A DNA stretch of 64,000 nt from Rhodanobacteraceae bacterium (GCA_004299705.1 SCQS01000061.1:32420-96419); one strand, 5' to 3'; positions 6,044 to 23,117 are shown, numbered from the stretch's first letter. Program-made: numbers and translations. Notes: a model not told the origin generated them from the letters alone.

Positions 6044-6051
6044 TGCTTGCT

Positions 6052-6098
6052 GGCGCGGCTTGCGTCCCGATCGCGGGATGCAGGCCGCGCCTTGTTTT
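6052..6098 (+). terminator. Rho-independent terminator candidate after the BNR-repeat gene
   Basis: GC stem GGCGCGGC (6052-6059) pairs with GCCGCGCC (6084-6091), with an inner hairpin tcccgatcgcggga. It is followed by TTGTTTT, 9 nt after the stop codon. Confidence 0.55.
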
Positions 6099-6174
6099 GA
6101 TGCGCCCGCCGCGCTTGTGCGGCCGCCAGCCCGCGCGCTAACGTAGCGATTCCAACGATTGCCGGGGAGCGACA

Positions 6175-8226
6175 ATGAACTTTCGCCTTGCCGCCTGCGC
6201 GCTGGCGCTGGCCGCTGCATCGGGAGCCGCGATGGCCGCTCAACATCCTTTCAATGCGCACGATCTCGCGATCATGGATCGGGTGTCCGACCCGCACCTG
6301 TCGCCGAACGGCAACGAGGTGGCCTTTATCGTGCGTTCGACCGACTGGGACGCCAACAAGGGCGTGACCAGCGTGTGGCTGCTCGACCTGTCTCACAAGG
6401 GCGCCGAACCACGTCGCGTCACCGATCTGAAGCTCAACGCCGGCAGCCCGGCGTTCTCGCCCGATGGCAAGACGCTTTATTTCCTTGCGACCGAAAAGGA
6501 TTCCACGCAACTGTGGTCGGCGCCGGTCGCGGGCGGCGCGCCTGCGCAGGTGACGCATCTGCCGCTCGATGTCGACAACTTCAAATTGTCGCCGGATGGC
6601 AAGTCGCTGCTGTTTTCTTCTCAGATGTTCGAGGATTGCGCGACGCTGGAGTGCACGCGCGAGAAGCTCGACGCGCAGAAGAAGGTCAAGGCCACCGGGC
6701 GCCTGTATCACCGCCTGTTCGTGCGGCACTGGGACGAATGGTCCGACCATCGCCGCGGCCAGTTGTTCGTGATGCCGCTGGATGGTTCGGCCAAACCGAT
6801 CCTGCTGACCCGCGGCATCGACGGCGACGTGCCATCCAAGCCCGATGGCAGCAATGCCGAGTACGCATGGTCGCCGGATGGCAAGATGGTGTACTTCGAT
6901 GTGCGCATCGCCGGCAAGACCGAACCCTGGTCCACCAACTTCGACGTGTATTCCGTGCCCGCCGATGCTTCGTCCGCGCCGAAGAACCTGACCGCAGAGA
7001 ACAAGGCGTGGGATGCGTTCCCGTTGCCGTCACGCGACGGCAAGACGCTGTATTACCTGGCGATGAAGGTGCCGGGATTCGAGGCCGACCGCTTCGGCAT
7101 CATGGCGCTGGATCTGGCGAGCGGCGCCCGCCGTGAAATCGATCCGCACTGGGATCGTTCGGCCGGGCCGCTGGAACTGTCGGCCGATGGCAAGACGCTG
7201 TACACGGCCGTGGCCGATGAGGGCAACGTCGCGTTGTACGCGATCGATGTCGCCACCGGCAAACCGACGAAGCTGCTGTCCGATGGCAGTGTGATGGGCT
7301 TCGATGTCGTGGGTGACAAAGTCGTTGCCGCACGCCAGGACTTCACGCACCCGACCGATCTGTACACGTTGACGGCGCAGGGCAAGGATCTCGCGCAAGT
7401 CACGCACTTCAACCAAGCACGCCTTGCCGACATCGAGTTTTCCAAGGCGCACTGGTTCACCTTCAAGGGCTGGAACGGCGACACCGTGCACGGCTACGTG
7501 ATGCCGCCGGTGGACGCCAAGCCGGGGCAAAAATATCCCGTCGCGTTCCTGATCCACGGCGGCCCGCAGGGCGCGTGGCCCGACGAGTTCCACTACCGCT
7601 GGAACCCGCAGACCTACGCCGGTGCGGGTTTCGCGGTGGTCGCGATCAATTTCCACGGCTCGGTGGGCTACGGGCAGGCCTTCACCGATGCGATCAGCCA
7701 GCATTGGGGCGATCGCCCGCTGGAAGATTTGCAGAAGGGCTGGGCTGCCGCACTCAAGCAATTCCCGTATCTCGACGCCAACAACGCCTGCGCGCTGGGC
7801 GCGAGCTATGGCGGCTACATGGTGTACTGGATGGCCGGCGTGTGGAACAAACCCTGGAAATGCTTCGTCGATCACGACGGCGTGTTCGACGCACGCATGA
7901 TGTATTACGCGACCGACGAGTTGTGGTTCGAGGAACACGAAAACGGCGGCACGCAGTTCGAGCACCCGGAGCACTACGAAAAATTCAACCCCATCGACCA
8001 CGTCAAGGACTGGCGCGTGCCGATGCTGGTCGTCCACGACAGCCGCGATTACCGCATTCCGGTTTCACAAGGACTGGGCGCGTTCACCGCGCTGCAGCGG
8101 CGCGGCATCCCCAGCGAGTTCCTCAACTTCCCCGACGAGGACCACTTGGTGCTGAAGCCGCAGAACAGCGTGATGTGGCACGAGACGGTGATCGATTGGC
8201 TGAAGCGCTGGACACAACAGGATTAA
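6175..8226 (+). CDS. S9 family serine peptidase (prolyl oligopeptidase / acylaminoacyl-peptidase type), exported
   Basis: Signal peptide MNFRLAACALALAAASGAAMA, then an N-terminal beta-propeller region with repeated SPDGK motifs. C-terminal alpha/beta hydrolase with HGGPQGAW and the nucleophile elbow GASYGGYM. Confidence 0.9.
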   Translation: MNFRLAACALALAAASGAAMAAQHPFNAHDLAIMDRVSDPHLSPNGNEVAFIVRSTDWDANKGVTSVWLLDLSHKGAEPRRVTDLKLNAGSPAFSPDGKTLYFLATEKDSTQLWSAPVAGGAPAQVTHLPLDVDNFKLSPDGKSLLFSSQMFEDCATLECTREKLDAQKKVKATGRLYHRLFVRHWDEWSDHRRGQLFVMPLDGSAKPILLTRGIDGDVPSKPDGSNAEYAWSPDGKMVYFDVRIAGKTEPWSTNFDVYSVPADASSAPKNLTAENKAWDAFPLPSRDGKTLYYLAMKVPGFEADRFGIMALDLASGARREIDPHWDRSAGPLELSADGKTLYTAVADEGNVALYAIDVATGKPTKLLSDGSVMGFDVVGDKVVAARQDFTHPTDLYTLTAQGKDLAQVTHFNQARLADIEFSKAHWFTFKGWNGDTVHGYVMPPVDAKPGQKYPVAFLIHGGPQGAWPDEFHYRWNPQTYAGAGFAVVAINFHGSVGYGQAFTDAISQHWGDRPLEDLQKGWAAALKQFPYLDANNACALGASYGGYMVYWMAGVWNKPWKCFVDHDGVFDARMMYYATDELWFEEHENGGTQFEHPEHYEKFNPIDHVKDWRVPMLVVHDSRDYRIPVSQGLGAFTALQRRGIPSEFLNFPDEDHLVLKPQNSVMWHETVIDWLKRWTQQD

Positions 8227-10643: not shown

Positions 10644-12641
10644 TTACGACACCTTGGCTTCGTCCGTCGCGCGCGAACGACCGCCGAACCGCCGCAGCGT
10701 CTGACGAATGCGGATCTGCCGGCTGACGTCGCGCATTTCGTGGATGCGCTTGGCGTTGGCCTTGAGCACATCGCTGCGGGTGAGCACGCCGACCATGTGG
10801 GTCGGGTTGTCGCGTTCGACCACGATCAGCCGGCCGACGTTCTCGGCCACCATCAGGTCGGAGGCATCACGCAGGTTGTGGTCTTCGAACACCACAATCG
10901 GCCCGCGCTTCAGCATGTCGCCGATGCGGGTGAGGCCGGGCTTGTCGGGGTCCTGCAATTCGCGTCGCGTGATCACGCCGCGCACCCGGCCGGCGTCGTC
11001 CAGCACCGGATAACCCTGGTGCTGGGCGCGTTCGCGGCCCGAGTTAAGCCAGCGGCGCACGTCGCCGAGTTCGTCCGAGGTTTTCAGCGCGCGCACGTCG
11101 CGGGTGCAGGCGTTGCCGACCTGCACCTGCTCCAGCGCGTCGGCGGCGTATTCGCTGGGCACCTTGACACCGCGACGCTCGATTTTCTCGGTCATGATGG
11201 TGCTGCGCATGGTCAGCGCCGAGATCAGGTAGGCGGCCGCGCAGCCGCCCAGCAGCGGCAGGAACGCCGCCGGCTGGCGGGTGGTTTCGAAGCAGAAGAT
11301 CACCGCCGTCAACAGCGCGCGTGCCGAGCCGGCGAACATTGCGCCCATGCCGACCAGCGCGGCGATGCGCGGATCGATGCCGAAGCCCGGCCACACGTAG
11401 TTGATGCCGATGCCGACCAGCGCGCCGGCGGATCCGCCGATCATGAACAACGGCGCCAGCGTGCCGCCCGAGGTGCCGCTGCCCAGCGCGATCACCCACG
11501 ACAGGAATTTCAGCGCGCCGAAGGTCAGCAACAGCATCACGCCGAAGTGTCCCTGCACCAGCGCGTCGATGTTGTCGTAGCCGACGCCCAGGGTGTGCGG
11601 CGAGAAATAACCGATCACGCCGGCCGCGACCGCGCCCAGCGCCGGCCACCACATCCAGTGGATCGGCAATTTCGCGAAGGCGTCTTCGACGCCATACACG
11701 GCGCGTGTCACCCACACGCTGGCGTAGCCCACGATCGCGCCCAGCACGATGTAGCCCGCCAGTGCCCAGCCGCCCGGTTCGGCGACGTTCGGCATCGCGA
11801 ACACCGCATGCGCGCCGAAAGTGGCGTAGCGCACACCCGTCGCGGTCACCGTGGCCAGCGCCACCGGGATCAACGAACGCGGGCGCAGTTCGAACAACAA
11901 CAGCTCGACTGCCATCACCACCGACGCGACCGGCGCGCCGAACACTGCCGCCATGCCGGCCGCGGCGCCGGCCGCCAGCAGCACCTTGCGTTCCTGCGCG
12001 GTGACGCTCAGCAATTGTCCGATCAGCGAACCCAGCGCACCGCCGGTCGAGATGATCGGGCCTTCGGCGCCGAACGGGCCGCCGGTACCGATCGCGAAGG
12101 CCGACGACACCGGCTTCAACCAGGTGACGCGTGGCGGGATGTTGGATTCGTGTTCGAGGATGCGCTCCATCGCCTCGGGGATGCCGTGGCCCTGGATCGC
12201 GCGCGAACCCCAGCGCGCCATGACACCGGCCAGCAGGCCGCCGATCACCGGCATCACGATCACCCACAGGCCAAGGTGGTTGTGCGCGGGCGACAGCACG
12301 CTTCCGTCGTAGTGGACGCTGGGCCCGATCACGTCGGAGATGCGCCCGTAGAAGCAGATGTCGGTGATCAGGTTGATCATCAGCATCAACAGTTGCGCGA
12401 CGCCGGCCGCGACCGCGCCGAGCACGATCGCGAGGCCGCCGATCAGCAGGATGCGGCGGTCGACCAGGGTCGACTTCAGCGGCATCCGCGCCTGGTCGAG
12501 CGAAGCGCCCAGCGCCGGCGCAACCGGCAGCGCTTCGGTACTGCCGGTGGTGCGCACGCTTTCGCGATCGCTCGGCGAGCTGTTTTCGGCGCGCAGCGGA
12601 TCGCGATCCGGCGCGGCGGAAGTCGGGTCTTGTGGGGTCAT
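10644..12641 (-). CDS. ClC-family chloride channel / H+-Cl- antiporter with C-terminal CBS pair
   Basis: ORF 10644..12836. Start placed at MTPQDPTS (ATG 12641). ClC motifs GSGIPE-like (GHGIPEA), GAEGPI and GTSGGTLAPLF, with 10 or more TM segments. The C-terminal CBS region includes VGRLIVVERDNPTHMVGVLTRSDV. Confidence 0.85.
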   Translation of the reverse strand: MTPQDPTSAAPDRDPLRAENSSPSDRESVRTTGSTEALPVAPALGASLDQARMPLKSTLVDRRILLIGGLAIVLGAVAAGVAQLLMLMINLITDICFYGRISDVIGPSVHYDGSVLSPAHNHLGLWVIVMPVIGGLLAGVMARWGSRAIQGHGIPEAMERILEHESNIPPRVTWLKPVSSAFAIGTGGPFGAEGPIISTGGALGSLIGQLLSVTAQERKVLLAAGAAAGMAAVFGAPVASVVMAVELLLFELRPRSLIPVALATVTATGVRYATFGAHAVFAMPNVAEPGGWALAGYIVLGAIVGYASVWVTRAVYGVEDAFAKLPIHWMWWPALGAVAAGVIGYFSPHTLGVGYDNIDALVQGHFGVMLLLTFGALKFLSWVIALGSGTSGGTLAPLFMIGGSAGALVGIGINYVWPGFGIDPRIAALVGMGAMFAGSARALLTAVIFCFETTRQPAAFLPLLGGCAAAYLISALTMRSTIMTEKIERRGVKVPSEYAADALEQVQVGNACTRDVRALKTSDELGDVRRWLNSGRERAQHQGYPVLDDAGRVRGVITRRELQDPDKPGLTRIGDMLKRGPIVVFEDHNLRDASDLMVAENVGRLIVVERDNPTHMVGVLTRSDVLKANAKRIHEMRDVSRQIRIRQTLRRFGGRSRATDEAKVS

Positions 12642-12774
12642 GGTGGGCAACAACGCGAAAGCTGCTGCGGCGCAGCATAGCGCGTATGCGGGTTGCGGCC
12701 AAGCACACTGGGTCGCATCGTTTGGCTGCGGGCCAGCCGAAGCGCCGACGGACGGCTTCGGCTGCGGGCTGTCA

Positions 12775-13395
12775 TCAGGCCGCCGGGCGGCGATCCCGCG
12801 GCAGGTGATGGACCAGGAATTCCATCTGGTCGGCAAGGATATTGCGGTTGGAGAGGATCAGGTGCTCGACCCAGCTCGGCTTGTAGGGAACGGCCAAGAG
12901 CGGCATCCCCGCCTGCTGCGGCGAGCGGCCGCCCTTCTTCAAGTTGCAGGCCAGGCACGCCGACACCACGTTTTCCCAGGTGTCCTGGCCGCCGCGCGAC
13001 AGCGGCATCACGTGGTCGCGGGTCAATTCGCCGCGCGTGCAATGGCGCCCGCAATACAGGCACAGGTAGCGGTCGCGCGCGAACAACGCCGCGTTGCTGA
13101 GCGCCGGCGAGGGATCGACCGCACCGCTCGCGCAATGCCCGCGGCTGGCGACGATCGGGTGCAGGCGCAGGATGCTCTGGTCGCCGGAATCCCGGTGCCA
13201 ACCACCGTGCAGCGTGAGACAGGGTTCACCCAGCGTCCACGCGACCGCTTCGCGCACGTACAGGCAGGCCGCGTCCTGCCAGCTGATCCAGTCGAGGATG
13301 CGCCCGCCCGCGTCGAGCGACAACACGCGCGTCGTGTGCAGATCCGCGACCGTGCACGCGGGATGTTCGATGGAACTGGCTGTGTGCGAGTCCAT
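12775..13395 (-). CDS. HNH endonuclease family protein
   Basis: ORF 12775..13416; start at MDSHT. The HNH core is CLYCGRHCTRGELTRDHVMPLSRGGQDTWENVVSACLACNLKKG, i.e. Cys4 zinc ligands with His/Asn/Asn. Confidence 0.8.
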   Translation of the reverse strand: MDSHTASSIEHPACTVADLHTTRVLSLDAGGRILDWISWQDAACLYVREAVAWTLGEPCLTLHGGWHRDSGDQSILRLHPIVASRGHCASGAVDPSPALSNAALFARDRYLCLYCGRHCTRGELTRDHVMPLSRGGQDTWENVVSACLACNLKKGGRSPQQAGMPLLAVPYKPSWVEHLILSNRNILADQMEFLVHHLPRDRRPAA

Positions 13396-13488
13396 GATTC
13401 GCGCAGCATAGAACAATTCCGTGAACGGGCGTTAGCGGCGTCTGTCCAATGGCCACCTGTCCTTGCGGGACGACAGCCCGTGTAGAGC

Positions 13489-13765
13489 CATCCCCCCGCC
13501 GCTGCGCGGCGACCCCCTTCCTGCGGAAGGGGGTGAGCGGGTGCCGGTATCCGTTTGTCTTCCCCCGCTTGCGAAGGAAAAGCAAGATGACTTCCCCTTC
13601 GTTTGCGAAGGAGCAGCAGGATGACCTCCCCCTTCGCCTGCGAAGGGGGAGCGCAGCGAACGCGCGCGCAGCGCGAGAGGGGGATGGCTTTTCGCACGTG
13701 GCGGTGCATCCCCCCGCACGCCTGCGGCATGCGACCCCCTTCGTGTCGAAGGAGGTGAATGAGCG
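13489..13765. repeat. Cluster of REP family B hairpins (about 5 units)
   Basis: Units include cccccttcctgcggaaggggg, ccccttcgtttgcgaagg, cccccttcgcctgcgaaggggg and cccccttcgtgtcgaaggagg. They are interspersed with catccccccgc and agagggggatggc motifs. Confidence 0.8.
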
Positions 13766-13787
13766 CAGCGCTGCATCCCGCTCACGC

Positions 13788-13901
13788 CGTCATTCCGGGG
13801 CCGCCCAAGGCGGAACCCGGAAGCTGCTTTTCATCTCATCCGACACCTTGAATTGAAACGGCAGATTCCGGGTTCTGTGCTGCGCACAGCCCCGAATGAC
13901 G
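13788..13901. repeat. REP family D pair (cgtcattccgg...ccggaa hairpins in inverted orientation)
   Basis: cgtcattccggggccgcccaaggcggaacccggaagc (13788-13824) and its inverted relative gattccgggttctgtgctgcgcacagccccgaatgacg (13864-13901). The pair lies just 3' of the SLOG-SLATT gene. Confidence 0.7.
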
Positions 13902-13912
13902 AAATGATGGAG

Positions 13913-15829
13913 TCACATCCTGCCCGCTTCCAGCGGCCGTTCGCGGTGCATCACCGCCCATTCCACGTGCTCGGCCAGCGCGGCTTCGCCGAGCGCGCGC
14001 AGGATGCCACGTTGTTCTTCCAGGTTGTCGGTGCGGTCGAGCGCCTTGCGCGCGTCGCCGAACACGCGGCCCATGAAACGGTATTGCCGGATCAGTTCGC
14101 GGTCGGCCTTGCGGAACGAATACGCCTCGCGCACCGCGGCGATGATCGAGAACACCGCCATGATCACGATCAGGTCGTTCTTGGCGTCGTAGGAAAGCTG
14201 GCGCAGGAATACCGCCATGAACACGCTGATCAGGATCGCCGCCAGCAGGCAGATCGCGCCGATCATCTCGTTGATGTGGTGGGTACGCTCGCGCTGTTCG
14301 GTGCGGTGCCGGTAATAACCCAGCTCGCCATGTTCCTCGTCGCCGACCCAGTCCTCGATCACCCCGCGCACCTGCTGCGCGTCCGGGCTCGACACATGGG
14401 CGCAGGCAGAAAGCCCGGCGCTGCGCATCACGTTGCGCACCCAGCCGAGTTCGATGTCCTGCTTCTGCATCAGGCTGTCGTGCGCGAACTCGGGATCGGT
14501 GGTCAGCGAGATGCCCGCGCGCCGCCAGTAACACTGCACGCGCAGACCCTCCGCCAGTGCGCGATAGTCGAGGTACTTGCGGTGCCAGGCGCGCCGTTTG
14601 GCGATGAAGCTGGTCACCACGCCGACCACGAACAGCAGCAGGAACACGTACAGCATGTTGTCCGAGCGTGGCAGGTTGTCGTACACCGTGAAGGCAATAC
14701 CCATCAGCGCAGCGGCGGTGTAGATGATGCGCAGCCCCAGCAGCACGCGCCTCTGGAAGTGCACGGCCAGCCAGTCGGCGGCGGCGAACAGGCCGGCGGC
14801 AGTGCCGCAGGCCTGCGCGCCGTGGCGCTCGTCGATCTCGGCGTGGAACGCGGCGATTTCCTCGCGGTACTTCGCGGCGTCAAGGTTGAATTCGTTGGCG
14901 TTTGCGAACACCCGTCGGAAAGCCGGTGGCATCGGCGCGTCCGGCTGGCCGGTTGCGTCAGGGGTGCGCCAGATCATTTGCCCCGCTTGCAGCGACGCCG
15001 CCGGCGCGCCATCCGGCGCTTCGCGCGCACAGACGAGGTGGCACAGCAGCCGTTCATCGCCGCCACCGGCCAGCCAGCGCGGCGCGCGGCGGCGGCGATC
15101 GAAAGCGCTGGGCAGGGCGCCGGTCAGGTAGTAATCCACGATTTGCGCGGTGCCCCCGAGCTTGCTGCTGTCCTTGCCGTCCCAGATCGCCAGCAGCACG
15201 TGGCAATGCCGTGCCACGAACATGCCGGCCTGCGCGTACTGGCGGTCGCGGTCGACGCCGTTGCGGTGGAGTCCGTCCGCACTGTGTCCGGGCAGCAGCG
15301 GCAGCTCGATCACCTGCGCCTGCGCGCACAGCGATTCGAATTGCCCTCGCGTGGCGGCATCTGCGAAGTCCCGCGCGTACAACGCGTGCGGCAGTGGCAG
15401 CGGAGCGATCAGCCGCGCACCCAGCTTCAGGCCTTCCTCCGCCACCAGCTGGTCGCCGCCCTCGGCCAGTGGCGACAGGATGGTCAGCGGGGAATTCGGG
15501 AACTCGCCCTGTAGTTGCATCAGCCACGCCCGCACGCGGGCGCGGATCGGCGCGATTTCGGCCGTTGCCAAATTGCGGTGGCTGGTGATGCCGATGACCA
15601 GCGGCGAGGCGACAGCGTGGATGGGTGAAGCCGCAACGCTCGCAGGTCCTGGTGCGTCATCCGCAGGCGTGGATTGAAGTTCGCCCGCCGCACCGGGTAC
15701 GTCGCCCACGGACGGCGCTCGACCCTCTCGCGTCATGCCGGGGCCAGCGCCGGCGTTGCCGGCGATGGAACCCGGAATCTGGAAATTTTGTTCGTTGTTT
15801 TGCATGAAAACTGGAAACACTTGTTGCAC
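13913..15829 (-). CDS. SLOG-like (DprA/LOG-superfamily Rossmannoid) domain fused to two 2-TM SLATT-like modules; candidate nucleotide-gated membrane effector
   Basis: ORF 13913..15829 with a GTG start; alternative ATG at 15805. Low-complexity N-terminus. Motifs VIGITSHRN, ILSPLAEGGDQLVAEEG, LIAPLPLP, HCHVLLAIWDG and GGTAQIVDYY resemble the SLOG/DprA-LOG pattern. Two TM pairs follow: LRIIYTAAALMGIAFTV/MLYVFLLLFVVGVVTSFI and IGAICLLAAILISVFMAVFL/LIVIMAVFSIIAAV. Each pair is followed by an amphipathic helix, as in SLATT/DUF4231. The CDS itself is high confidence; the domain call needs HMM or structure confirmation. Confidence 0.6.
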   Translation of the reverse strand: MQQVFPVFMQNNEQNFQIPGSIAGNAGAGPGMTREGRAPSVGDVPGAAGELQSTPADDAPGPASVAASPIHAVASPLVIGITSHRNLATAEIAPIRARVRAWLMQLQGEFPNSPLTILSPLAEGGDQLVAEEGLKLGARLIAPLPLPHALYARDFADAATRGQFESLCAQAQVIELPLLPGHSADGLHRNGVDRDRQYAQAGMFVARHCHVLLAIWDGKDSSKLGGTAQIVDYYLTGALPSAFDRRRRAPRWLAGGGDERLLCHLVCAREAPDGAPAASLQAGQMIWRTPDATGQPDAPMPPAFRRVFANANEFNLDAAKYREEIAAFHAEIDERHGAQACGTAAGLFAAADWLAVHFQRRVLLGLRIIYTAAALMGIAFTVYDNLPRSDNMLYVFLLLFVVGVVTSFIAKRRAWHRKYLDYRALAEGLRVQCYWRRAGISLTTDPEFAHDSLMQKQDIELGWVRNVMRSAGLSACAHVSSPDAQQVRGVIEDWVGDEEHGELGYYRHRTEQRERTHHINEMIGAICLLAAILISVFMAVFLRQLSYDAKNDLIVIMAVFSIIAAVREAYSFRKADRELIRQYRFMGRVFGDARKALDRTDNLEEQRGILRALGEAALAEHVEWAVMHRERPLEAGRM

Positions 15830-15867
15830 CTTCTGGAGGGCCGTGGCGATTGGCTTGCTTCTCGCTT

Positions 15868-15920
15868 CGTCATTCCAGGGCGGCCTGCAGCCTCATCGCA
15901 GGCCGAACCCGGAATCCAGC
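15868..15920. repeat. REP family D hairpin between the small secreted gene A3 and the SLOG-SLATT gene
   Basis: cgtcattccagggcggcctgcagcctcatcgcaggccgaacccggaatccagc, with inverted arms cattcc.ggg / cccggaatc. Confidence 0.7.
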
Positions 15921-15978
15921 TTTTGCTAACTGAGTCGGGGAGGCGCGAAAGCGCGCCTCCCCAAAGTGCAGCGTTCAA

Positions 15979-16216
15979 TCAACAGTTGTCGATCGTTGGG
16001 TTGGTAGTGACGTCGGGCGTCACCGAACCCGCTCCACCTGCTGCGGCCATGCAAGCGTTCTGGTTGCCGAACGCACATTCCACATCTTGCACCACGTACT
16101 GGAACCATGAGCCTGAGGAAGCAGTCGGTGCGGCATTGGCCACACTGGCGCTACCGGCGAGAAGCAACCCGATCAGCACGGCCACGGTGCGGGGGGGGGG
16201 TAAGTTTGCGTTTCAT
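15979..16216 (-). CDS. Small secreted Cys-containing protein (module A, A3); frame broken by a C10 tract in the signal-peptide codons
   Basis: ATG at 16216 has the SD AGAAGGAGAG and encodes MKRKLTPP..., then hits the homopolymer at 16191-16200. The downstream frame (ORF 15979..16185) reads VAVLIGLLLAGSASVANA|APTASS... and ends TNPTIDNC. Removing 1 nt (or adding 2) restores a continuous ~78-aa precursor. The leader and SD are near-identical to those of the paralog at 19965. Confidence 0.5.
16191..16200. repeat. G10 (C10 on the coding strand) homopolymer tract inside A3
   Basis: Printed as gggggggggg at 16191-16200. It places the ATG at 16216 out of frame (31 nt) with the signal-peptide ORF starting at 16185. 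Confidence 0.85.
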
Positions 16217-16236
16217 GATGCTCTCCTTCTGTGTTT

Positions 16237-16252
16237 GCGGCAGGATTGCCGC
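16237..16252 (-). promoter_or_regulatory. Conserved leader hairpin upstream of A3 (paralog at 19987-20002)
   Basis: Minus-strand GCGGCAatccTGCCGC lies about 9 nt upstream of the SD AGAAGGAGAG. About 45 nt of leader is conserved with module B. Confidence 0.45.
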
Positions 16253-16317
16253 GGTGAAACGGCGTCAGAAATACGCGAATTCTCGAAGTCGCAAGTCGTG
16301 TACACGCGATCGAAGAG

Positions 16318-16662
16318 TCATTTGTTATCGACTGTCGGATCACCCGGATTCCCTCCGACTCCGGATCCCGTGCAACAAGTCTGGCTCGGATTCCCATAGG
16401 ACACGCAAAGCGTGTAGGGATAGACGATTACAGGTCCGTTGTTCTGGTTGTTGTCGGTAACGGTGATCTCGCCGTCTGTTACGGTCGGGGTGCCGAAGAT
16501 CGATGTCGGCAGTTCGGTGAGTGAAGCGAACGTGAAATCCTGATTTTCGGCCGGTAGCCAGTTGATGGGGGCCGTGCCCCGATCCATTTGAAGATGCGGA
16601 GGATCGCAGGTGACCACCGGTGGGTTCACGCTGGTATCAAGGGAAACATGGACGTCTGGCAT
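16318..16662 (-). CDS. Small cytoplasmic beta-rich protein (module A, A2), C-terminal DP-x-V-x-NK motif
   Basis: ORF 16318..16800; start placed at MPDVHVSLD (ATG 16662), 114 aa, no signal peptide. Ends GDPTVDNK. Features ITVTDNNQNNGPVIVYPYTLCV. Lies 59 nt downstream of TIR-A. Confidence 0.65.
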   Translation of the reverse strand: MPDVHVSLDTSVNPPVVTCDPPHLQMDRGTAPINWLPAENQDFTFASLTELPTSIFGTPTVTDGEITVTDNNQNNGPVIVYPYTLCVSYGNPSQTCCTGSGVGGNPGDPTVDNK

Positions 16663-16720
16663 GGGAATGATCCTTTTTGATGCGCGGCACTCGGAAGGCG
16701 GGCCGCATCGCCTCGCTGCT

Positions 16721-19009
16721 TCAGTGTGCCTCGCCTGCGTGTCGCGGCGCGTTTGACGGGCGGCGTCCTTCGGCAATATCGGACTGCATGATTTGCGCAA
16801 GCCGTTGCTGGAATGCCGCGTTGGCTGGATAGCCGATGTGATGGCTGGCCAGCAGCGCCACGAAGTCCGGCGTGCGAAAACCCATGGCGTTGAGTTTGGC
16901 GATTGCCGGCTGCGCGGCTTGCGTTTGACCCAGGCTTAGCAGTGCTTCTGCATAGGCCGCGAGGAAGTTCGGGTCGTCACCCGCGCGCAACGTGGGTTGC
17001 AGCAGATTGCGCGCCTGTGCCCACTCGCGCTGTGCGGCGGCACTGTCGCGGCGTCGTGCGGCGATCGTCCCCAGCAGGATGTCGGCTTGCGCTCCGAGCA
17101 GGATCAGGCCGCGATCGTCCGGCATCTTCGTGCGCAATTTGGCAACAATGGCCGCCGCGGCTGCGGCTGCCTTGTCCGCGCCTTCGATGTCGGTGCGCGC
17201 CAGTTGCAAGCGTGCAGCTTCCAGCTGCGCCTGCGCCAAATCCGGTGGCCAATCAGTACTGGTTGGATCTTTCGCACTCAGCTCGCTCAACACCCGCACG
17301 GCATCAGCGTCGGCCGTCGCCGCGTCGCCGAGCCGCCCTGCTTGCCGCTGCAGCCCCCCCAACTGTTGGCTGTAGAGGCCGTAGTAGTCCTGCCAGCCGG
17401 AGTCAGTCGGGTCGAAAACCGTCAGTGCCTTGGCGCTGTCCACCGCTGCGGTGGTGAAGCGCAGTGCGTTGTCCAGATCGCCGCACCATCCCAGCGTGCG
17501 GCCCAGGATCGCGTCACTGATCAGCAGATAGGTTTGTGCATGATGATCGCTTGGACTGCCGGCAGCCAGCGACGCCTTGATGCGCTGGTCGGCGCGATAG
17601 TCCGTAATTGCCAGATCGAGCCGGCCTTGTTCCAGCGCCAGTTTTCCCAGGCTGTCGTATTGGTTGCCCAGGTACAACTGCCAACGCGCTTGCTTGGGTT
17701 GACGAGCGCGCCAACGCGTGTAGATGTTCAACGCGGCTTCGTACTGGATTCCGGCGTCGTCGAAATCTCCACGGTGGTCCAGCACGTAACCGCTGTCGTG
17801 ATACGCCGCAGCGAGTTCGAATGCGAGTTCGCTGTCATCGGGCTTCGCCGTTGCGGCTTTCTGCAGGGCGGCAGTGGCGGCCCGGAAGTCTTGCAGTGCG
17901 CGCGGCATGTCGCCCTGATACAAATGAGCCTGGCCGACCCATTTGAGGCTGTTGCCGTAGGCGGCTTGGCGAGACGAATTATCGGGCGCGCGCCTGACGA
18001 GTTCGGCGGCCAGTTTGGAGGCGTCTTGATACGCCCGCAGCGCCGCTTGTGTCTTGCCCTGATCCATGCGCACGCTGCCGATTTTTTCAAGTGCGGTGAC
18101 GCGCATCTCAAGTGATGCGTCCGTTGCGTCGGCGACGGGCAACGATTCGAAGTATGCAAGCGCCTTGTCGTCCACGGCCTGCATGATGTCCAAGCGATCT
18201 ACTTGCGCCAGTTTGTCGTTGAGGTCGCCGAGCATGAAGTTGACCAACCCCTCGGCCTGCTTCTGCCGGCGCTCGGCGGCCTGCTTGGCGGTCACGGCTT
18301 CGTGTTGCGCGATCACGGCGCGATGACGGGAAACCAAGGCCGCGATGGCCAGTACGATGGTCACGGCCATCACCACGACCGCGATCGCGGTGACGGCCGC
18401 CATCCGGCGCATCTGCCGGCGCTGCTCGCGCTGCTTCAGCGCATCGAAGCCGACGTCGAGCATCCCGGCGATCAGTTTCAGTTTCGCGTTGGGTTTGCCG
18501 TCCTTGCCGGGGCGTGCGTCGGCAGCGATCGGTTCGGCGCGTTTGGCGATGGGCCGGCCCTCGGCATCCGTGGCGAAGCGCAGCGCAGGGCAGAAGCATT
18601 CTTCCGCTTCGCGACCGGAGATGTCGGAAGCACTCGGTTCGCCATCCACGATCAGGCAGAAAATTCGATCGCCGCGGCCCATCCGCTTGTACGCCAGCAC
18701 TTCCTCGTTGACCCAGCGCGACGCTGCCGAGGCGGGCGAGCAGATCACGATCAGGTTTTCGGACTGCGAGAGCGCCTGGTTGATCCTGGCGCCGAGCTCG
18801 GGCGCGCTGGAAAGCTCGTCGCGGTCGCGGAAGACCGGGTTCAGGCGGCGCGGGATCGCGCCGTGCGCGGTCTGCTTGCCGACCAGCCGCGACGGCACGC
18901 GATACGTCTCCAACGCCTTGTGCAGCCAGCCCGCCCACGCCTTGTCGCGGTGGCTGTAGCTCAAGAAGGCGCGATAGATGGGCGTCTGCTGGGTGATGGG
19001 GTCCGGCAT
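16721..19009 (-). CDS. TIR domain - single TM - TPR-like repeat protein (TIR-A)
   Basis: N-terminal TIR motifs YRAFLSYSHRDKAWAGWLHKALE, RDRDEL, LIVICSPASAASRWVNEEV (conserved Glu) and IFCLIVDGEP. TM helix MAAVTAIAVVVMAVTIVLAIAALV (about aa 203-226). About 530 aa of Ala/Leu/Gln-rich TPR-like helical repeats follow. Confidence 0.9.
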   Translation of the reverse strand: MPDPITQQTPIYRAFLSYSHRDKAWAGWLHKALETYRVPSRLVGKQTAHGAIPRRLNPVFRDRDELSSAPELGARINQALSQSENLIVICSPASAASRWVNEEVLAYKRMGRGDRIFCLIVDGEPSASDISGREAEECFCPALRFATDAEGRPIAKRAEPIAADARPGKDGKPNAKLKLIAGMLDVGFDALKQREQRRQMRRMAAVTAIAVVVMAVTIVLAIAALVSRHRAVIAQHEAVTAKQAAERRQKQAEGLVNFMLGDLNDKLAQVDRLDIMQAVDDKALAYFESLPVADATDASLEMRVTALEKIGSVRMDQGKTQAALRAYQDASKLAAELVRRAPDNSSRQAAYGNSLKWVGQAHLYQGDMPRALQDFRAATAALQKAATAKPDDSELAFELAAAYHDSGYVLDHRGDFDDAGIQYEAALNIYTRWRARQPKQARWQLYLGNQYDSLGKLALEQGRLDLAITDYRADQRIKASLAAGSPSDHHAQTYLLISDAILGRTLGWCGDLDNALRFTTAAVDSAKALTVFDPTDSGWQDYYGLYSQQLGGLQRQAGRLGDAATADADAVRVLSELSAKDPTSTDWPPDLAQAQLEAARLQLARTDIEGADKAAAAAAAIVAKLRTKMPDDRGLILLGAQADILLGTIAARRRDSAAAQREWAQARNLLQPTLRAGDDPNFLAAYAEALLSLGQTQAAQPAIAKLNAMGFRTPDFVALLASHHIGYPANAAFQQRLAQIMQSDIAEGRRPSNAPRHAGEAH

Positions 19010-19464: not shown

Positions 19465-19965
19465 TTATTTGTTGATGATCATTGGGTCAATGATGGCCAG
19501 TGTTCCATCCGAACGCTGGATCGTGAGGGTGAATTCGAATTCATCCGGAGTGGGGTCGGCGTCGAACACGGACAATCGCGTAGTGTTAGCGCGAGCAACG
19601 AGCGTTCGCATCGGAAATGCAGTGCTCCCGATTGAATCGCTGGTACCGCCCGATACCTCCTTGAAGCTGATGCCGACCGGGCTGTATGTGGTTCCATCAG
19701 CCCCCTGGATGATGAAACGAATCTCGGTAGGCCCGTTCACGGTCAGAGCGCCGCTCGAATCCATGGACACCATGCTGCCCCCGTTATACAGCTGGTACGA
19801 TGCGGGCGATGACAATGACAGCGGCAGGGCTTGCACGACGGTGACAACGACGGTCGGTACGTTTACCGAGGCTGATGCGGATTGGGCGTAAGCCAATCTA
19901 ACCCCCCCCAAGCCGATACCAGCCAACGCTAATGCGATTGCCGCGGATGACAGAATACGTTTCAT
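19465..19965 (-). CDS. Secreted beta-rich protein (module B, B3), C-terminal DPMIINK motif
   Basis: ORF 19465..20037. Start placed at MKRILSSAAIALALAGIGLGGVRLAYA|QSAS (signal peptide) with SD AGAAGGAGAG; 166 aa. Ends IIDPMIINK. GC is lower than in the flanking sequence. Confidence 0.75.
   Translation of the reverse strand: MKRILSSAAIALALAGIGLGGVRLAYAQSASASVNVPTVVVTVVQALPLSLSSPASYQLYNGGSMVSMDSSGALTVNGPTEIRFIIQGADGTTYSPVGISFKEVSGGTSDSIGSTAFPMRTLVARANTTRLSVFDADPTPDEFEFTLTIQRSDGTLAIIDPMIINK
19902..19909. repeat. C8 (G8 on the coding strand) homopolymer inside the B3 signal-peptide codons
   Basis: acccccccca at 19901-19910. It encodes the GLGG part of the signal peptide and is currently in frame. 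Confidence 0.8.
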
Positions 19966-19986
19966 GATGCTCTCCTTCTGCGTGTG

Positions 19987-20002
19987 CGGCGGAATTGCCG
20001 CA
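19987..20002 (-). promoter_or_regulatory. Conserved leader hairpin upstream of B3 (paralog of 16237-16252)
   Basis: Minus-strand GCGGCaattccGCCGC, followed by cacacgcAGAAGGAGAGcatcATG, which is identical in register to the A3 leader. Confidence 0.45.
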
Positions 20003-20301
20003 GTTAAACAACAGGGGTCAACATGATTTTCCAGCATGGGTGCCCCAACCGGATCGGATAGTTCCTACGGTTTCGCCGCGACCCGGTGGTGGATTTGTCT
20101 CACAGGGATTGCCCTTGACGGTGGCGTGCAACAGCTAGAACCCGGTGATTTTTTCGCAACGCTTGATGTGCCAAGGCGTTGGCAAACGCGCCGCATCCTG
20201 CGGCTTCCCGTCAAGCCATCGGCTGCGCCGATGTTCGTTTCGACATCCTCCCTGCACGGTTCGGATCGCGATTCCGGGATGATGGGTTGAGTCGATGTTT
20301 C

Positions 20302-20712
20302 CTAGACCGGCTTGTTCTGGATCATCGGGTCGCAGGGGATGGTCACGTTCTCGGTGGTGTCGAGCACCGTCACCTTGTAGCGCGCATCGATGGCCGCGTC
20401 GCAGCGGTCGTTGATCGCGCGCGTCCGCGGCGCGTTGCCTTGCGCCGTCAATTGATTGGCGTTGTCGTTGACGAAGCTGATTTCGGCGAACCGGTATCGC
20501 GCATCGGTGTTCGCGGCGAACATCAGCGTGGTCGCCGCGTGGCCGCCGCCGATGCCATACACGATCGAACCGTTGTTGGTGGGTTGATTGCCGCCGCTGT
20601 ACTTGTAACTGTAGGTCTGGCCGTTGGACGCCATAACGTTGGTCCAGCCGTCGCCATTGCTGGGAAAGTTGCGGATGTCCAGGGATACGTTGGTCGGGTT
20701 GTTGGCGGGCAT
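20302..20712 (-). CDS. Small cytoplasmic beta-rich protein (module B, B2), C-terminal CDPMIQNKPV motif
   Basis: ORF 20302..21039; start placed at MPANNPTNV (ATG 20712) with SD GGAG 8 nt upstream; 136 aa, no signal peptide. Lies 103 nt downstream of TIR-B. Confidence 0.7.
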   Translation of the reverse strand: MPANNPTNVSLDIRNFPSNGDGWTNVMASNGQTYSYKYSGGNQPTNNGSIVYGIGGGHAATTLMFAANTDARYRFAEISFVNDNANQLTAQGNAPRTRAINDRCDAAIDARYKVTVLDTTENVTIPCDPMIQNKPV

Positions 20713-20815: not shown

Positions 20816-22957
20816 TCATTGCGAGGTAACCGTGGCTTGCGCGATCGGCGTTTGCTTCCATGGGTACAGCGGCACATAGCCGCTGTGGTCGAGCTTTGCC
20901 AGATACGGCGCGGCGTCGGCGTCACGGTGCTGTGCCAGCAGCACGCGCACCAGCAAGGGGAGGCGGTCGAACGCCGGCGGATCGCTGCCTTCGCGCAGGA
21001 TGTGTTCGGCCTCGGCCCACGCCGCGCGCGCGGCTGCAACGTCGCCGCGCTGCGCGGCGACGTTGCCTTGCAGCCAGTGCAATTCCGCCGGCAGCAAGCC
21101 GTAGCCGTCGTTGCCTTGTTGGCTCGTCGCAGCCGCTTTCAGCCCGGCATCGGCCTGCGACAGCCAGGCGGACGCTCCGTCGAGGTCACTGCGCCGCCAG
21201 GCCAACTCACCCAGCAGCACCCGGGCTTTCGCCAGCCAATGCTGGGCCAGGCCGTCGTTGGGCTCGGCGGCGTGCACCGCAGAAGCGGCGCGTTCTGCCT
21301 TGCGCGCCGCTGCTTGCGCTTGCGCAGGTGACACGAGTGAGTCCAGCCGCGCCTGCCACCAGTAGTCCATGCCGAGTTGCAGCTGCCACGCCTTGTTGGT
21401 AGGGTCTTGGCGGGTCAGCGTTTCCGAAAGCGCAGCCGCTTCCGCCGCGCCACTGCGCGCGTCGGCGACTCCGCCGGTCTCGGCCTGCACCTGTACGAGG
21501 AACAGCCGTGCATCCGGCCACTGCGCTTGCCATTGCGCATTGGCGGGCTCTGCGGCGCGGTTGGCCGAGATGTAGTCGACCTGTTCGGTGAAGCGGGAGC
21601 GCGCCTCGGCGAGACGGCCATCCTTCATGGCCAGGCTGCCGAGGTAGGAAGCCACGGTCGCGGCCTCGTCGCGCAAGTCGGCGACGTGCGGATGCGTCTT
21701 GATCCAGCCGAGGTACAGCGCGTACGCAGACTGGAAGATCGTTTCGGCCTGCTGGTCGCGGTTGCGGGCGAGGTCGAGCGTGCCGAGGTTCACGTCGCCG
21801 TAAGCGACCTCGCGTTGCCACGCGAAGTTGCTTCGATCCATCGCCGCCAGCCGCAGCGCGCTGTCGCGATAGCGGGTCAGCCAGGCTTTGGCGTCGTCGA
21901 GGCGACCCTGGCGCCAGAACACGAAGCCAATCCAGTATTCGGCCTGGGCCAGGTCGAACAGCCGTTGGCCGTTGCCGGGCTGGCGCTGGTGCAGCTCGTT
22001 GCTGCGCGCATAGGCGTCGCGGAACGCCTGCATGGCCTTGTCGGCGTGGCCCTGGTCCAGCCGCACCTGACCGATGCCGGTCAACAGGCGCGCTTGCTCT
22101 TCCAGCGCGTGTTCGCTCAGGTCGCGGGGCTGCAGGGTGTCGAAATACGTGGTGGCCTTGTCGTCCACCGCGACCATCAGGTCGAGCCGTCCGACCGTGG
22201 ACAGTTTCTTGCGCAGGTCGCCCAGCATGAAGCCCAGGATGTCCTCGGCCTGGGCCTGGCGGCGCTGGGCATCGTTGCGTGCGACGTAGGCGCTGACCGC
22301 AAGCACGCTGGTGATCGCCATGCCAACCAGCGCTGCCGTCGTGATGGCCAGCAGCCGGTGGCGGTGGCGACGCGCTTCTCGGCGCGCCAAGGCATCGAAG
22401 CCGACATCCAGCATCCCGGCGATCAGTTTCAGCTTGGCGTTTTGCTTGCCGTCCTTGCCGGGACGCACGTCGGCGGCGATCGGTTCGGTGCGTTCGCCCG
22501 TCGGTTGGCCGTTCGCATCGAGTTGGAATCTCAACGCGGGGCAGAAACATTCTTCCGCTTCGCGGCCGGGCATGTCGGTGGCGTCGGGCTCGCCGTCCAC
22601 GATCAGGCAGAATATGCGTCCGGCGCGGCCCATACGCTTGTATGCCAGCACTTCCTCGTTGACCCAGCGCGAGGTGGTCGACGCAGGCGAGCAGACCACG
22701 ATCAGGTTTTCGGATCGCGCCAGCGCCTCGTTGACCCTGCGGCCAAGGTCGGTCGCGCTGGCGAGTTCCTCGCGGTCGCGGAAGATCGGGTTGAGGCGGC
22801 GCGGGATTTCACCGTGCGCGGTGCGGGTGCCGACCAGCCGCGACGGCACGCGATACGTTTCCAGTGCCCGATGCAACCAGTCCGCCCACGCCTTGTCGCG
22901 GTGGCTGTAGCTGATGAAGGCGCGGTAGGTGAAGCTGGCAACGGACGGATCGGGCAT
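20816..22957 (-). CDS. TIR domain - single TM - TPR-like repeat protein (TIR-B), paralog of TIR-A
   Basis: ORF 20816..23077; start placed at MPDPSVASFTYRAFISYSHRDKAWADWLHRALE (coordinate +/-1 by my count). The TIR, juxtamembrane region and LKLIAGMLDVGFDAL are nearly identical to TIR-A. TM helix LLAITTAALVGMAITSVLAVSAYV. The TPR-like C-terminal region is divergent. Confidence 0.9.
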   Translation of the reverse strand: MPDPSVASFTYRAFISYSHRDKAWADWLHRALETYRVPSRLVGTRTAHGEIPRRLNPIFRDREELASATDLGRRVNEALARSENLIVVCSPASTTSRWVNEEVLAYKRMGRAGRIFCLIVDGEPDATDMPGREAEECFCPALRFQLDANGQPTGERTEPIAADVRPGKDGKQNAKLKLIAGMLDVGFDALARREARRHRHRLLAITTAALVGMAITSVLAVSAYVARNDAQRRQAQAEDILGFMLGDLRKKLSTVGRLDLMVAVDDKATTYFDTLQPRDLSEHALEEQARLLTGIGQVRLDQGHADKAMQAFRDAYARSNELHQRQPGNGQRLFDLAQAEYWIGFVFWRQGRLDDAKAWLTRYRDSALRLAAMDRSNFAWQREVAYGDVNLGTLDLARNRDQQAETIFQSAYALYLGWIKTHPHVADLRDEAATVASYLGSLAMKDGRLAEARSRFTEQVDYISANRAAEPANAQWQAQWPDARLFLVQVQAETGGVADARSGAAEAAALSETLTRQDPTNKAWQLQLGMDYWWQARLDSLVSPAQAQAAARKAERAASAVHAAEPNDGLAQHWLAKARVLLGELAWRRSDLDGASAWLSQADAGLKAAATSQQGNDGYGLLPAELHWLQGNVAAQRGDVAAARAAWAEAEHILREGSDPPAFDRLPLLVRVLLAQHRDADAAPYLAKLDHSGYVPLYPWKQTPIAQATVTSQ

Positions 22958-22961
22958 CGCG

Positions 22962-22971
22962 GCCCCCCCCC
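22962..22971. repeat. C9-10 (G-run on the coding strand) homopolymer 5 nt upstream of the TIR-B start codon
   Basis: The minus strand reads ...ACGC-G(9-10)-CCGCG-ATG. The G-run occupies the SD position. Confidence 0.75.
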
Positions 22972-23117
22972 GCGTCGGTACGACAACCATCCCTGGCAGG
23001 ACACGACCCTTGGGCGCGACGCGCCTGCCGGTCGCCGCGATCCGGCGATCCCGGATGCTGGGTGCCGAACCTAACACAAAACGTGAACTGTGTCTCGTTT
23101 CTTGATGGGTCGCCCTG

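Follow-up and report, generated by a model that had tools for sequence, protein, structure and literature searches.

The subject of this study is a gene in a 64,000-nucleotide stretch of DNA (the window) from a Rhodanobacteraceae bacterium (GCA_004299705.1 SCQS01000061.1:32420-96419). On the minus strand of the window, positions 13913-15829 form an uninterrupted open reading frame (ORF) of 638 codons, from GTG to TGA, which we call the target. Its product has the layout of a cytoplasmic sensor, a SLOG domain, followed by two SLATT-type hairpins of two transmembrane helices each (2TM), and the family is linked to TIR genes in most loci and across distant lineages. We propose, with a probability that we put at about 65%, that the target is the membrane effector of a TIR-based, Thoeris-like anti-phage signalling system.

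The target gene and its product

A first-pass annotation, made from the sequence alone, had described the frame without stating its strand. The 638-codon frame was recovered, it lies on the minus strand, and every motif cited in that annotation was found in it. The target and the predicted parts of its product are listed below with the evidence for each; TM1 to TM4 are the transmembrane (TM) helices.

13913-15829, minus strand: target ORF, 638 codons from GTG; conserved protein aa 76-638 (homologs and the P0001 model)
15605-15829, minus strand: A/G/P-rich, non-conserved N-terminal extension, aa 1-75 (homolog variability, composition)
14927-15604, minus strand: predicted SLOG domain, YpsA-like, aa 76-301 (AlphaFold2 model, Foldseek, invariant columns, YAcAr matches in relatives)
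14417-14794, minus strand: 2TM module 1, SLATT_3/DUF4231-like, aa 346-471 (Pfam/NCBIfam matches, hydropathy)
14690-14746, minus strand: TM1, aa 362-380, module 1 (hydropathy)
14600-14656, minus strand: TM2, aa 392-410, module 1 (hydropathy)
within 14417-14794, minus strand: helix KYLDYRALAEGLRVQ behind TM2, the most conserved helix
13943-14380, minus strand: 2TM module 2, SLATT_1-like, aa 484-629 (NCBIfam match, Pfam matches of relatives, invariant columns)
14207-14263, minus strand: TM3, aa 523-541, module 2 (hydropathy)
14117-14173, minus strand: TM4, aa 553-571, module 2 (hydropathy)
within 13943-14380, minus strand: FRKADRELIRQYRFM behind TM4, then the conserved C-terminal helix LGEAALAEHVEWAVMHRERPLE

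Because homologs by the thousand aligned across aa 76-638 of the target and the opposite frame had no such support, the target ORF, judged by this conservation, is a genuine gene and not a high-GC artefact. The opposite frame is a plus-strand ORF at 13853-15514 (553 aa) that overlaps most of the target and owes its origin to a GC content of 65%. It was rejected as a high-GC artefact without homolog support, and it could mislead gene callers.

Residues A, G, P, S and V make up 60% of aa 1-75. Among 120 homologs the N-terminal extension ranged from 0 to ~60 aa with no shared sequence, and conservation began at PLV(I/V)G(I/V)T(S/G)HR, aa 76 of the target. The low-complexity start of ~80 aa reported in the first pass was confirmed in its composition (for the first ~75 aa); as a conserved part of the protein it did not stand, its length and sequence varying among homologs, and it is probably a 5' leader or a disordered tail rather than a domain. 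An identical NCBI protein, P0001 ('hypothetical protein EPN36_12715', from a Rhodanobacteraceae metagenome-assembled genome, or MAG), is annotated with 569 aa; its first residue is target aa 70 at nt 15622, where the codon is ATC (15620-15622). The canonical start candidates are GTG 15829, ATG 15805, ATG 15736 and GTG 15709, and only the last is preceded by a Shine-Dalgarno-like GAGAGGG. The genuine start falls at some point within 15622-15829.

When 5.8 billion proteins were searched by word index, 2,903 of the 8,000 candidates scored were matches at E≤1e-3. Of these homologs, the best 120 were full-length, with 58-100% identity, and came chiefly from Rhodanobacteraceae/Xanthomonadales MAGs and Rhodanobacter isolates. 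The N-domain by itself (aa 70-335) was also searched exhaustively with HMMER against 1.84 billion representatives at 50% identity, which yielded 5,774 clusters at E≤1e-3, 2,990 at E≤1e-10 and 263 at E≤1e-30. These numbers refute the first-pass description of the protein as orphan-looking. Among the 150 best N-domain representatives, 87 had a length of 530-700 aa; hydrophobic segments were present in both the ~270-410 and the ~420-600 regions in 86 of the 87, with at least two in each region in 63. SLOG followed by 2TM and 2TM is, as read from these sequences, the standard architecture of a large family, and the pair of SLATT modules behind a single SLOG domain that had been called unusual is the family norm (86/87 full-length representatives).

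Relatives occurred in at least 578 genomes when one genome per GTDB species was scanned, and the best 80 of these genomes belonged to Rhodanobacter, Dyella, Rudaea, Dokdonella and related MAGs. Homologs were found in very many Rhodanobacteraceae species at 53-83% identity, and Rhodanobacter and Dyella are culturable genera that carry a well-conserved cassette. A profile search extended the family to Woeseiaceae and Acidobacteria; the phage collection that was searched contained no homolog of the target.

The structure of the target was modelled with AlphaFold2 from a 48-sequence alignment, giving a mean predicted local distance difference test (pLDDT) of 80.7 and a predicted TM-score of 0.80. 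The N-domain was built of alternating beta strands and alpha helices, mostly with pLDDT >90, and the C-terminal half was all-helical. The ten top Foldseek matches of the target in the PDB were SLOG-superfamily proteins without exception. The best was Bacillus subtilis YpsA/DUF1273 (PDB 2nx2; E=3.9e-4, TM-score 0.64 on the target), followed within the top ten by DprA of three species (E=7.8e-3), ShosA, Moco carrier protein and TM1055; PpnN, another SLOG-superfamily protein, ranked 31. A Pfam scan of the target gave no match in the N-domain even at E≤1. Sequence searches of PDB chains with the protein or with the family profile yielded no meaningful match; the N-domain was identified by structure comparison only. 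In a set of 71 diverse relatives, Pfam YAcAr ('YspA, cpYpsA-related SLOG family') was matched by 8 (best E=1.2e-6) and the DprA model by 1, and a Rhizobium homolog of the domain carries the DUF1273 annotation. The model predicts that the N-domain is a Rossmannoid SLOG fold, closest to YpsA, and AlphaFold2 and Foldseek together bear out the Rossmann-like SLOG core suggested in the first pass.

The conserved loops of the SLOG domain are G-x-T-(S/G)-H-R after strand 1, SPLAEGGD (with the GxD motif) after strand 2 and WDG...GGTAQ after strand 5. In a diverse alignment (27-48% identity to P0001) the three loops, written there as G-x-T-G-H-R, A-x-G-x-D and W-D-G...G-G-T, were invariant or at least 90% conserved; in P0001 numbering H15 and G55 were invariant, and G11, T13, G14, R16 and D57 were conserved in at least 90% of sequences. 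In SLOG proteins the loops after strands 1, 2 and 5 form the nucleotide pocket, and a Gly-rich strand-1 loop together with a GxD/E motif is reportedly clade-defining.

A tandem-SLOG variant was also seen, in P0121 (Woeseiaceae, locus L090, 7001-9511) and about 60 similar proteins of ~835-840 aa. The L090 effector (836 aa) has an extra N-terminal 260 aa that are a second SLOG copy, with the same 4TM region behind; this extra domain shares 48% identity with the second SLOG domain of the same protein and 43% with the SLOG domain of the window.

In a Kyte-Doolittle scan, the target showed two pairs of hydrophobic helices, one at aa 362-380/392-410 and the other at aa 523-541/553-571. The loop within each pair is 11 residues long with 1-2 basic residues; behind each pair comes a strongly basic amphipathic helix, and the 24 residues there carry 7 and 8 Lys/Arg. 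Because of these counts, 7 and 8 after the pairs versus 1-2 in the inter-helix loops, the sequence fits a topology of two hairpins with N-in/C-in orientation. Hydropathy and charge agree with the first-pass description of two hydrophobic pairs with an amphipathic helix behind each. Module 1 (aa 346-434) matched Pfam DUF4231 (E=2.9e-4), Pfam SLATT_3 (E=6.3e-4) and NCBIfam SLATT_3 (E=1.6e-5), and module 2 (aa 502-574) matched NCBIfam SLATT_1 (E=1.5e-6). Of the 71 relatives, 25 matched DUF4231, 18 matched SLATT_3 and 15 matched Pfam SLATT_1 at E≤0.01; the DUF4231 match of a Caballeronia member (30.9 bits) was above the curated threshold. Both SLATT-like modules of the first pass find support in these matches, which are sub-threshold in the target and stronger in relatives. 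The name SLATT ('SMODS and SLOG-associating 2TM effector') itself records the association of the two domains.

When module 1 was aligned with module 2 by hhalign, the shallow alignment gave nothing, and the diverse one produced a weak match in consistent register that came mostly from the TM helices (E=0.0015, probability 17%). With such scores, and with the modules matching different SLATT subfamilies, the recent duplication implied by the earlier term 'duplicated' lacks good support. Outside the SLOG domain, conservation was highest in the cytoplasmic helix that follows TM2 (KYLDYRALAEGLRVQ) and in the helix LG.EAL.E..W..HRERPLE at the C-terminus, and both are plausible elements of transmission from sensor to membrane. 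The 4TM region with its cytoplasmic helices was conserved as much as the SLOG domain, with R354, R361, W425 and W555 invariant (P0001 numbering). Transporter-like Pfam matches (MFS, acyltransferase and 7TMR; E 0.04-0.07) were rejected as noise from hydrophobic segments.

TIR genes and other neighbours of the target

The genes that lead toward the target on the minus strand are, in order, TIR-TPR gene 2, small ORF B, a third small ORF, TIR-TPR gene 1, small ORF A, a tiny ORF with a GC-rich hairpin, and the target.

20816-23077, minus strand: TIR-TPR gene 2, 753 codons as listed; TIR aa 54-163 = nt 22589-22918 (Pfam TIR_2 E=1.5e-13, ThsB_TIR E=2.5e-8, TPR families)
20302-20712, minus strand: small ORF B, 136 aa, ending ...CDPMIQNKPV, directly downstream of TIR-TPR gene 2
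19465-20037, minus strand: third small ORF, 190 aa as listed, ending ...IIDPMIINK (Pfam DP-EP PF08985 E=0.007, sub-threshold)
16721-19009, minus strand: TIR-TPR gene 1, 762 aa; TIR aa 15-125 = nt 18635-18967, TPR repeats downstream (Pfam TIR_2 E=2.3e-12, ThsB_TIR E=3.9e-8, TPR families)
16318-16662, minus strand: small ORF A, 114 aa, ending ...GDPTVDNK, directly downstream of TIR-TPR gene 1
12775-13395, minus strand: HNH endonuclease gene, immediately downstream of the target (90% identical by tblastn to a gene with Pfam HNH in the syntenic locus L001)

Both TIR domains of the window exceeded the Pfam thresholds for TIR_2 and ThsB_TIR. The motif S.WV..EV, whose Glu we take by analogy to be the TIR catalytic residue, was kept in at least 90% of 71 partner TIRs and is present in those of the window too. 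The start of TIR-TPR gene 2 is likely, from its sequence, to be an ATG near 22957. The first-pass annotation had held that a lack of TIR, SMODS or other conflict-system neighbours would speak against its proposal; TIR genes were present here and in most homolog loci.

The generality of this linkage was assessed in 86 fetched loci, in which the target was located by a hidden Markov model (HMM) and the TIRs by an HMM iterated from the window TIR domains. Counts were made over 74 loci, which either extended at least 2.5 kb upstream or already showed a TIR gene within an upstream flank shorter than that. A TIR-TPR gene lay directly upstream on the same strand in 52 of these and was divergently adjacent in 6-7; 2 had fragments and 13 had none. 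A broader set of TIR seeds gained one more locus, with two convergent TIR-TPR genes of a second type. TIR linkage thus amounts to ~85% of the 74 loci, which all come from one bacterial family and so are not independent.

Distant members of the family lend independent support: a TIR gene was adjacent in 4 of 5 distant contexts, with differing TIR architectures. In Woeseiaceae (39% identity), a TIR-TPR ortholog 40-56% identical to those of the window is followed by a 528-aa secreted protein and then by the 836-aa effector. At L089 a protein with TIR_2 and DUF4190 (E=2.9e-22) is encoded 50 bp upstream of the family member, and at L088 a TIR gene that is short, and may be truncated, is found 30 bp downstream. 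On the mobilizable plasmid pSBC2-4 of Caballeronia sp. SBC2, a 577-aa 'DUF4231 domain-containing protein' is followed by a 539-aa TIR protein and a WD40 protein; the 577-aa protein is a full-length member of the family (hhalign probability 99.9%, E=5e-32, from SLOG through TM4). TIR partners that are exchanged in this way while the effector is conserved are what one would expect to see in modular defence systems based on signalling.

Other features of the loci bear on mobility. Where the window has two TIR-TPR genes, the syntenic locus L001 carries four, together with an IS110 element: in L001 (compared over 11937-16298), two extra TIR-TPR genes of a second type separate the target from the HNH gene, and upstream there is a gene for an IS110 transposase, all three being absent from the window. 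Because these genes are absent here, TIR gene content differs among close relatives. The cassette occupies differing chromosomal sites in different genera; toxin-antitoxin, HNH, STAND/NACHT and CHAT genes were found near homolog loci; and one copy, that of Caballeronia pSBC2-4, is plasmid-borne. Some genomes carry a target homolog without any TIR gene.

The three small ORFs of the window share a C-terminal motif of the DP.x.NK type. Small ORFs A (114 aa) and B (136 aa) are cytoplasmic, and the third probably has a signal peptide, starting at M25 of the listed sequence. Homologs of small ORFs A and B, in two sub-families, stood behind the TIR-TPR gene in 53 of the fetched loci, and a small ORF accompanied the TIR-TPR gene even where the pair ran divergent from the target. 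Because of this last arrangement we assign the small ORF, on gene order, to the TIR-TPR sensor module. Small ORF A had no Pfam, NCBIfam or PADLOC match. The small conserved ORFs may be a third component of the system.

Proposed function and its alternatives

TIR-based systems of this general kind have been catalogued by Yirmiya et al. (bioRxiv 10.64898/2025.12.03.692087, December 2025), who list 29 putative Thoeris types. In their account, the SLOG domain of type I ThsA binds 3' cyclic ADP-ribose (3'cADPR); the type VII effector ThsH is a SLATT protein activated by canonical cADPR; and type III (van den Berg et al. 2024) has several TIR genes and a SLOG effector, with the signal given as unknown. 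Their Table S2 includes a putative effector 'SLOG and 4TM' from Streptomyces sp. GKU 895 and Ca. Nitrospira nitrosa COMA1 (IMG 2691454910, 2862473379), and the partner TIRs are labelled '4TM SLOG' in Table S1. They caution that the TIRs of unverified types may be NADase effectors. A 2026 review places the type III SLOG in the Smf/DprA type and the ThsA SLOG in the STALD type. Iyer et al. 2022 (PMC9503650) described SLATT as a predicted membrane-permeability effector under the control of ADP-ribose (ADPR) derivatives, and YpsA-like SLOG domains as cADPR sensors.

The target matches the 'SLOG and 4TM' class on the grounds of architecture and context. The two have in common a SLOG domain, four TM helices, an adjacent TIR gene and a predicted status. 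They differ in their partners: the published examples, from Streptomyces and Nitrospira, have short standalone TIRs, whereas the target has two TIR-TPR proteins of ~750 aa, each with a small conserved ORF. A BLAST comparison of the window TIRs with the published TIR domains of types I, III and VII and of '4TM SLOG' found no significant similarity. A search with the N. nitrosa TIR domain returned only TIRs 55-64% identical to it, on short contigs without an effector. Within a database of 7 sequences, the short TIR beside family member P0333 came closest, though weakly, to the N. nitrosa TIR (E~1e-4).

The established systems each share part of this design. Type I ThsA (SIR2-SLOG), like the target, has its SLOG sensor in an effector encoded beside TIR (ThsB) genes; however, its output is SIR2 (NAD+ depletion) and its SLOG is of the STALD type, whereas the target has a membrane module as output and a SLOG closest to YpsA. 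Type VII ThsH, again encoded beside a TIR gene, is a 2TM membrane effector of the SLATT type that is expected to form oligomers and breach the membrane, but it has no SLOG, its ligand pockets being between SLATT protomers, and the target has a dedicated SLOG before two different SLATT-like modules. Type III Thoeris (Pseudomonas aeruginosa L0872, ThsD) resembles the target in combining several TIR genes with a non-STALD SLOG effector; the ThsD SLOG, which was compared by description only, is reported as Smf/DprA type, and that of the target is nearer YpsA (E=3.9e-4 vs 7.8e-3 for DprA). The YpsA/YAcAr family of B. subtilis, the best structural match, shares with the target the GxD motif and the Gly-rich strand-1 loop, yet YpsA is a small soluble protein with neither a TM region nor a TIR partner. 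It has been linked to cell division (Brzozowski et al. 2019, cited as reference 108 of PMC9503650). A cytoplasmic ligand-binding domain fused to membrane-damaging TM helices is also the plan of the SAVED-4TM effector 'S_4TM' of CBASS (defence against phages that signals through cyclic oligonucleotides) and of type II Thoeris TM-Macro; their sensor folds (SAVED, Macro) and signals differ from those of the target, and their TM regions are unrelated.

We envisage the following course of events. Phage infection would activate a TIR-TPR protein, with the TPR region as the putative sensor, and its TIR domain would turn NAD+ into an ADPR-derived signal. The SLOG domain of the target would bind that signal, and the cytoplasmic helices behind each hairpin (KYLDYRALAEGLRVQ and the C-terminal LG.EAL.E..W..HRERPLE) would relay the change to the four TM helices. 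These might then oligomerise or open, so that the inner membrane would be depolarised or permeabilised, and the collapse of the membrane would lead to growth arrest and abortion of phage replication. The nucleotide-gated, abortive-infection-type membrane effector of the first-pass annotation is in keeping with both the architecture and the TIR context; the gating, the pore and the ligand are what we infer.

A number of results weigh against a defence effector of this kind. The GC content of the island equals that of the genome, the flanks and position of the target are kept among its closest relatives, and the gene is widespread in Rhodanobacteraceae and less patchy than typical defence genes. 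After the broader search, ~11 of the 74 Rhodanobacteraceae loci (about 15%) had no TIR gene within 8 kb, nor had the acidobacterial locus L087 within 7-8 kb. In the window a spacer of ~490 bp, with the tiny ORF and the GC-rich hairpin, separates the target from the TIR-TPR/small-ORF pair, and because of it co-transcription of the target with the TIR-TPR gene is uncertain. The SLATT matches of the target fell under the curated thresholds (DUF4231, 21.7 bits vs 24.7; SLATT_3, 20.5 vs 26.3; NCBIfam SLATT_1, 28.2 vs 41), and neither Foldseek against the PDB nor the family-profile search of PDB chains found a solved structure resembling the 4TM half. PADLOC 2023 (PADLOC-DB 2.0) has no model for the target or its halves; run on every component, it gave no system-level match, and the TIR-TPR proteins gave weak TIR-level matches only. 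Finally, both published 'SLOG and 4TM' operons were scored 'Defense: No' in Escherichia coli MG1655 (Yirmiya et al.).

Several of these points would suit a physiological role without defence, in which the target is a nucleotide-gated membrane channel or regulator of Rhodanobacteraceae (for example in stress or dormancy) and the TIR-TPR proteins are housekeeping signal generators. The presence of the target in so many species of the family, the GC content and kept flanks, the loci lacking a TIR gene (L087 included), the phage collection without a copy and the E. coli tests without defence all lean that way. We nevertheless consider such a role unlikely, since the TIR partners have been swapped between lineages (TIR-TPR, TIR with DUF4190, short TIR, TIR with WD40), as in modular defence systems; TIR gene number differs among close relatives (2 here vs 4 with IS110 in L001); a mobilizable plasmid carries one copy; HNH, toxin-antitoxin, STAND/NACHT and CHAT genes occur among the neighbours; and the chromosomal site varies by genus. 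Adjacency might also come without signalling: the TIR-TPR protein would be a self-contained NAD+-depleting sensor and effector, as the caution of Yirmiya et al. allows, and the SLOG-4TM protein an independent single-gene system or a receptor for another ligand. The divergent orientation that the TIR-TPR and small-ORF unit can take, the 490-bp spacer with its hairpin in the window and the homologs that stand alone are consistent with this. It is quite unlikely all the same, because linkage persists across orders with unrelated TIR architectures, which is hard to explain without functional coupling, because the Woeseiaceae TIR-TPR, orthologous to those of the window, is still paired with the effector, and because SLOG is the established receptor of TIR products in type I Thoeris.

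A catalytic SLOG domain would give the protein a different part. Held at the membrane by a 4TM region that is an anchor only, it might act as a LOG-like N-glycosidase or process nucleotides in another way, and so break down or mature the TIR product or use up a nucleotide; SLOG proteins of the LOG clade are N-glycosidases, and cleavage of ribosyl-adenine bonds has been proposed for some YpsA-like SLOG domains (Iyer et al. 2022, PMC9503650). The invariant polar residues in the pocket loops (H, R, D and the T/Q of GGTAQ) and the presence of PpnN and TM1055 among the structural matches are in its favour, but YpsA and DprA, the clades that match most closely, lie outside LOG, the TM modules have their matches in SLATT effector families, and conservation in the 4TM region and its cytoplasmic helices equals that of the SLOG domain, which is beyond the needs of a passive anchor. 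The position after GGT, which we take to be Glu in the LOG motif 'PGGxGTxxE', is Gln in the target and was likewise counted against an enzyme. We regard this role as very unlikely, and a membrane effector driven by a TIR-made signal remains the reading that we favour.

A bolder version, which we hold as doubtful, is that the TIR-TPR protein, the small DP-EP-like protein and the SLOG-4TM protein form a distinct, unnumbered Thoeris type, with a SLOG domain that recognises a TIR product other than the known cADPR isomers and His-ADPR and with an obligatory small protein, or else that they are a domesticated, near-core, TIR-driven switch of membrane potential outside phage defence. An obligatory third small protein could explain the failure of the two-gene 'SLOG and 4TM' constructs in E. 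coli.

Already known are the large family, for which this architecture is the norm, and its listing as a putative Thoeris effector type. What is added here is the sensor module of TIR-TPR and small protein, the multiple TIR paralogs per locus, the tandem-SLOG variant and the near-core distribution in Rhodanobacteraceae. The first-pass annotation was sound on the domains and the likely role and mistaken on the rarity. Bacteria, plants and animals all use TIR-derived nucleotides as immune signals, and new receptor-effector pairs have so far brought a new molecule or a new mode of activation. The SLOG-4TM class, with thousands of protein clusters, is still a predicted-only Thoeris effector type. 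This locus and its relatives offer a candidate third component that two-gene tests ignored, natural variants (SLOG-SLOG-4TM and varied TIR partners) and invariant residues in the pocket and the transmission helices. If the proposed effector mechanism is true, it would reveal how a SLOG sensor gates SLATT modules and could identify another TIR signal; if the target is not a defence protein, bacteria would have in this near-core TIR-to-SLOG channel a second-messenger physiology of a new kind.

Minor features of the locus and its relatives

The HNH gene is a neighbour of the target and at most a candidate member of the system; beyond it are genes for a CLC channel, a DXP synthase and an S9 peptidase. 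A promoter and terminator scan of 13600-16800 found no consensus sites.

A Rhizobium binae plasmid, p4 (NZ_CP071608.1), carries at 4617-6986 of locus L093 an operon of TIR, caspase-family, DUF1273 and TIR genes. Its DUF1273 protein is a standalone YpsA-type SLOG of 159 aa, of the same clade as that of the window and about 29% identical to it, and the operon looks like a type IV Thoeris-like caspase system with a standalone SLOG. Its occurrence among TIR genes counts in favour of the proposed TIR-driven role of the target.

At two loci of acidobacterial type, L087 (9128-10958) and L088 (9862-12120), the family member is closely followed downstream by a gene resembling phosphoribosyl pyrophosphate (PRPP) synthetase (Pribosyltran_N/Pribosyl_synth) and by an HD_4 gene. 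They may reflect plain synteny or a link to nucleotide metabolism.

Between small ORF A and the target, the tiny ORF (15979-16216, minus strand) reads ATG AAA CGC AAA CTT A, then ten C (poly-C at 16191-16200), and then a Sec-type signal peptide out of frame (TVAVLIGLLLAGSASVANA). Behind it, at 15937-15962, is the GC-rich hairpin, GGGGAGGCGCG-CTTT-CGCGCCTCCCC, without a T-run. The distal part of the tiny ORF encodes a Cys-containing peptide of ~50 aa that ends in ...TNPTIDNC. Deletion of one C from the poly-C restores a 78-aa pre-peptide, and the homolog in L001 is a 106-aa ORF; the poly-C could, from the sequence, be either a homopolymer assembly error or a phase-variable switch.

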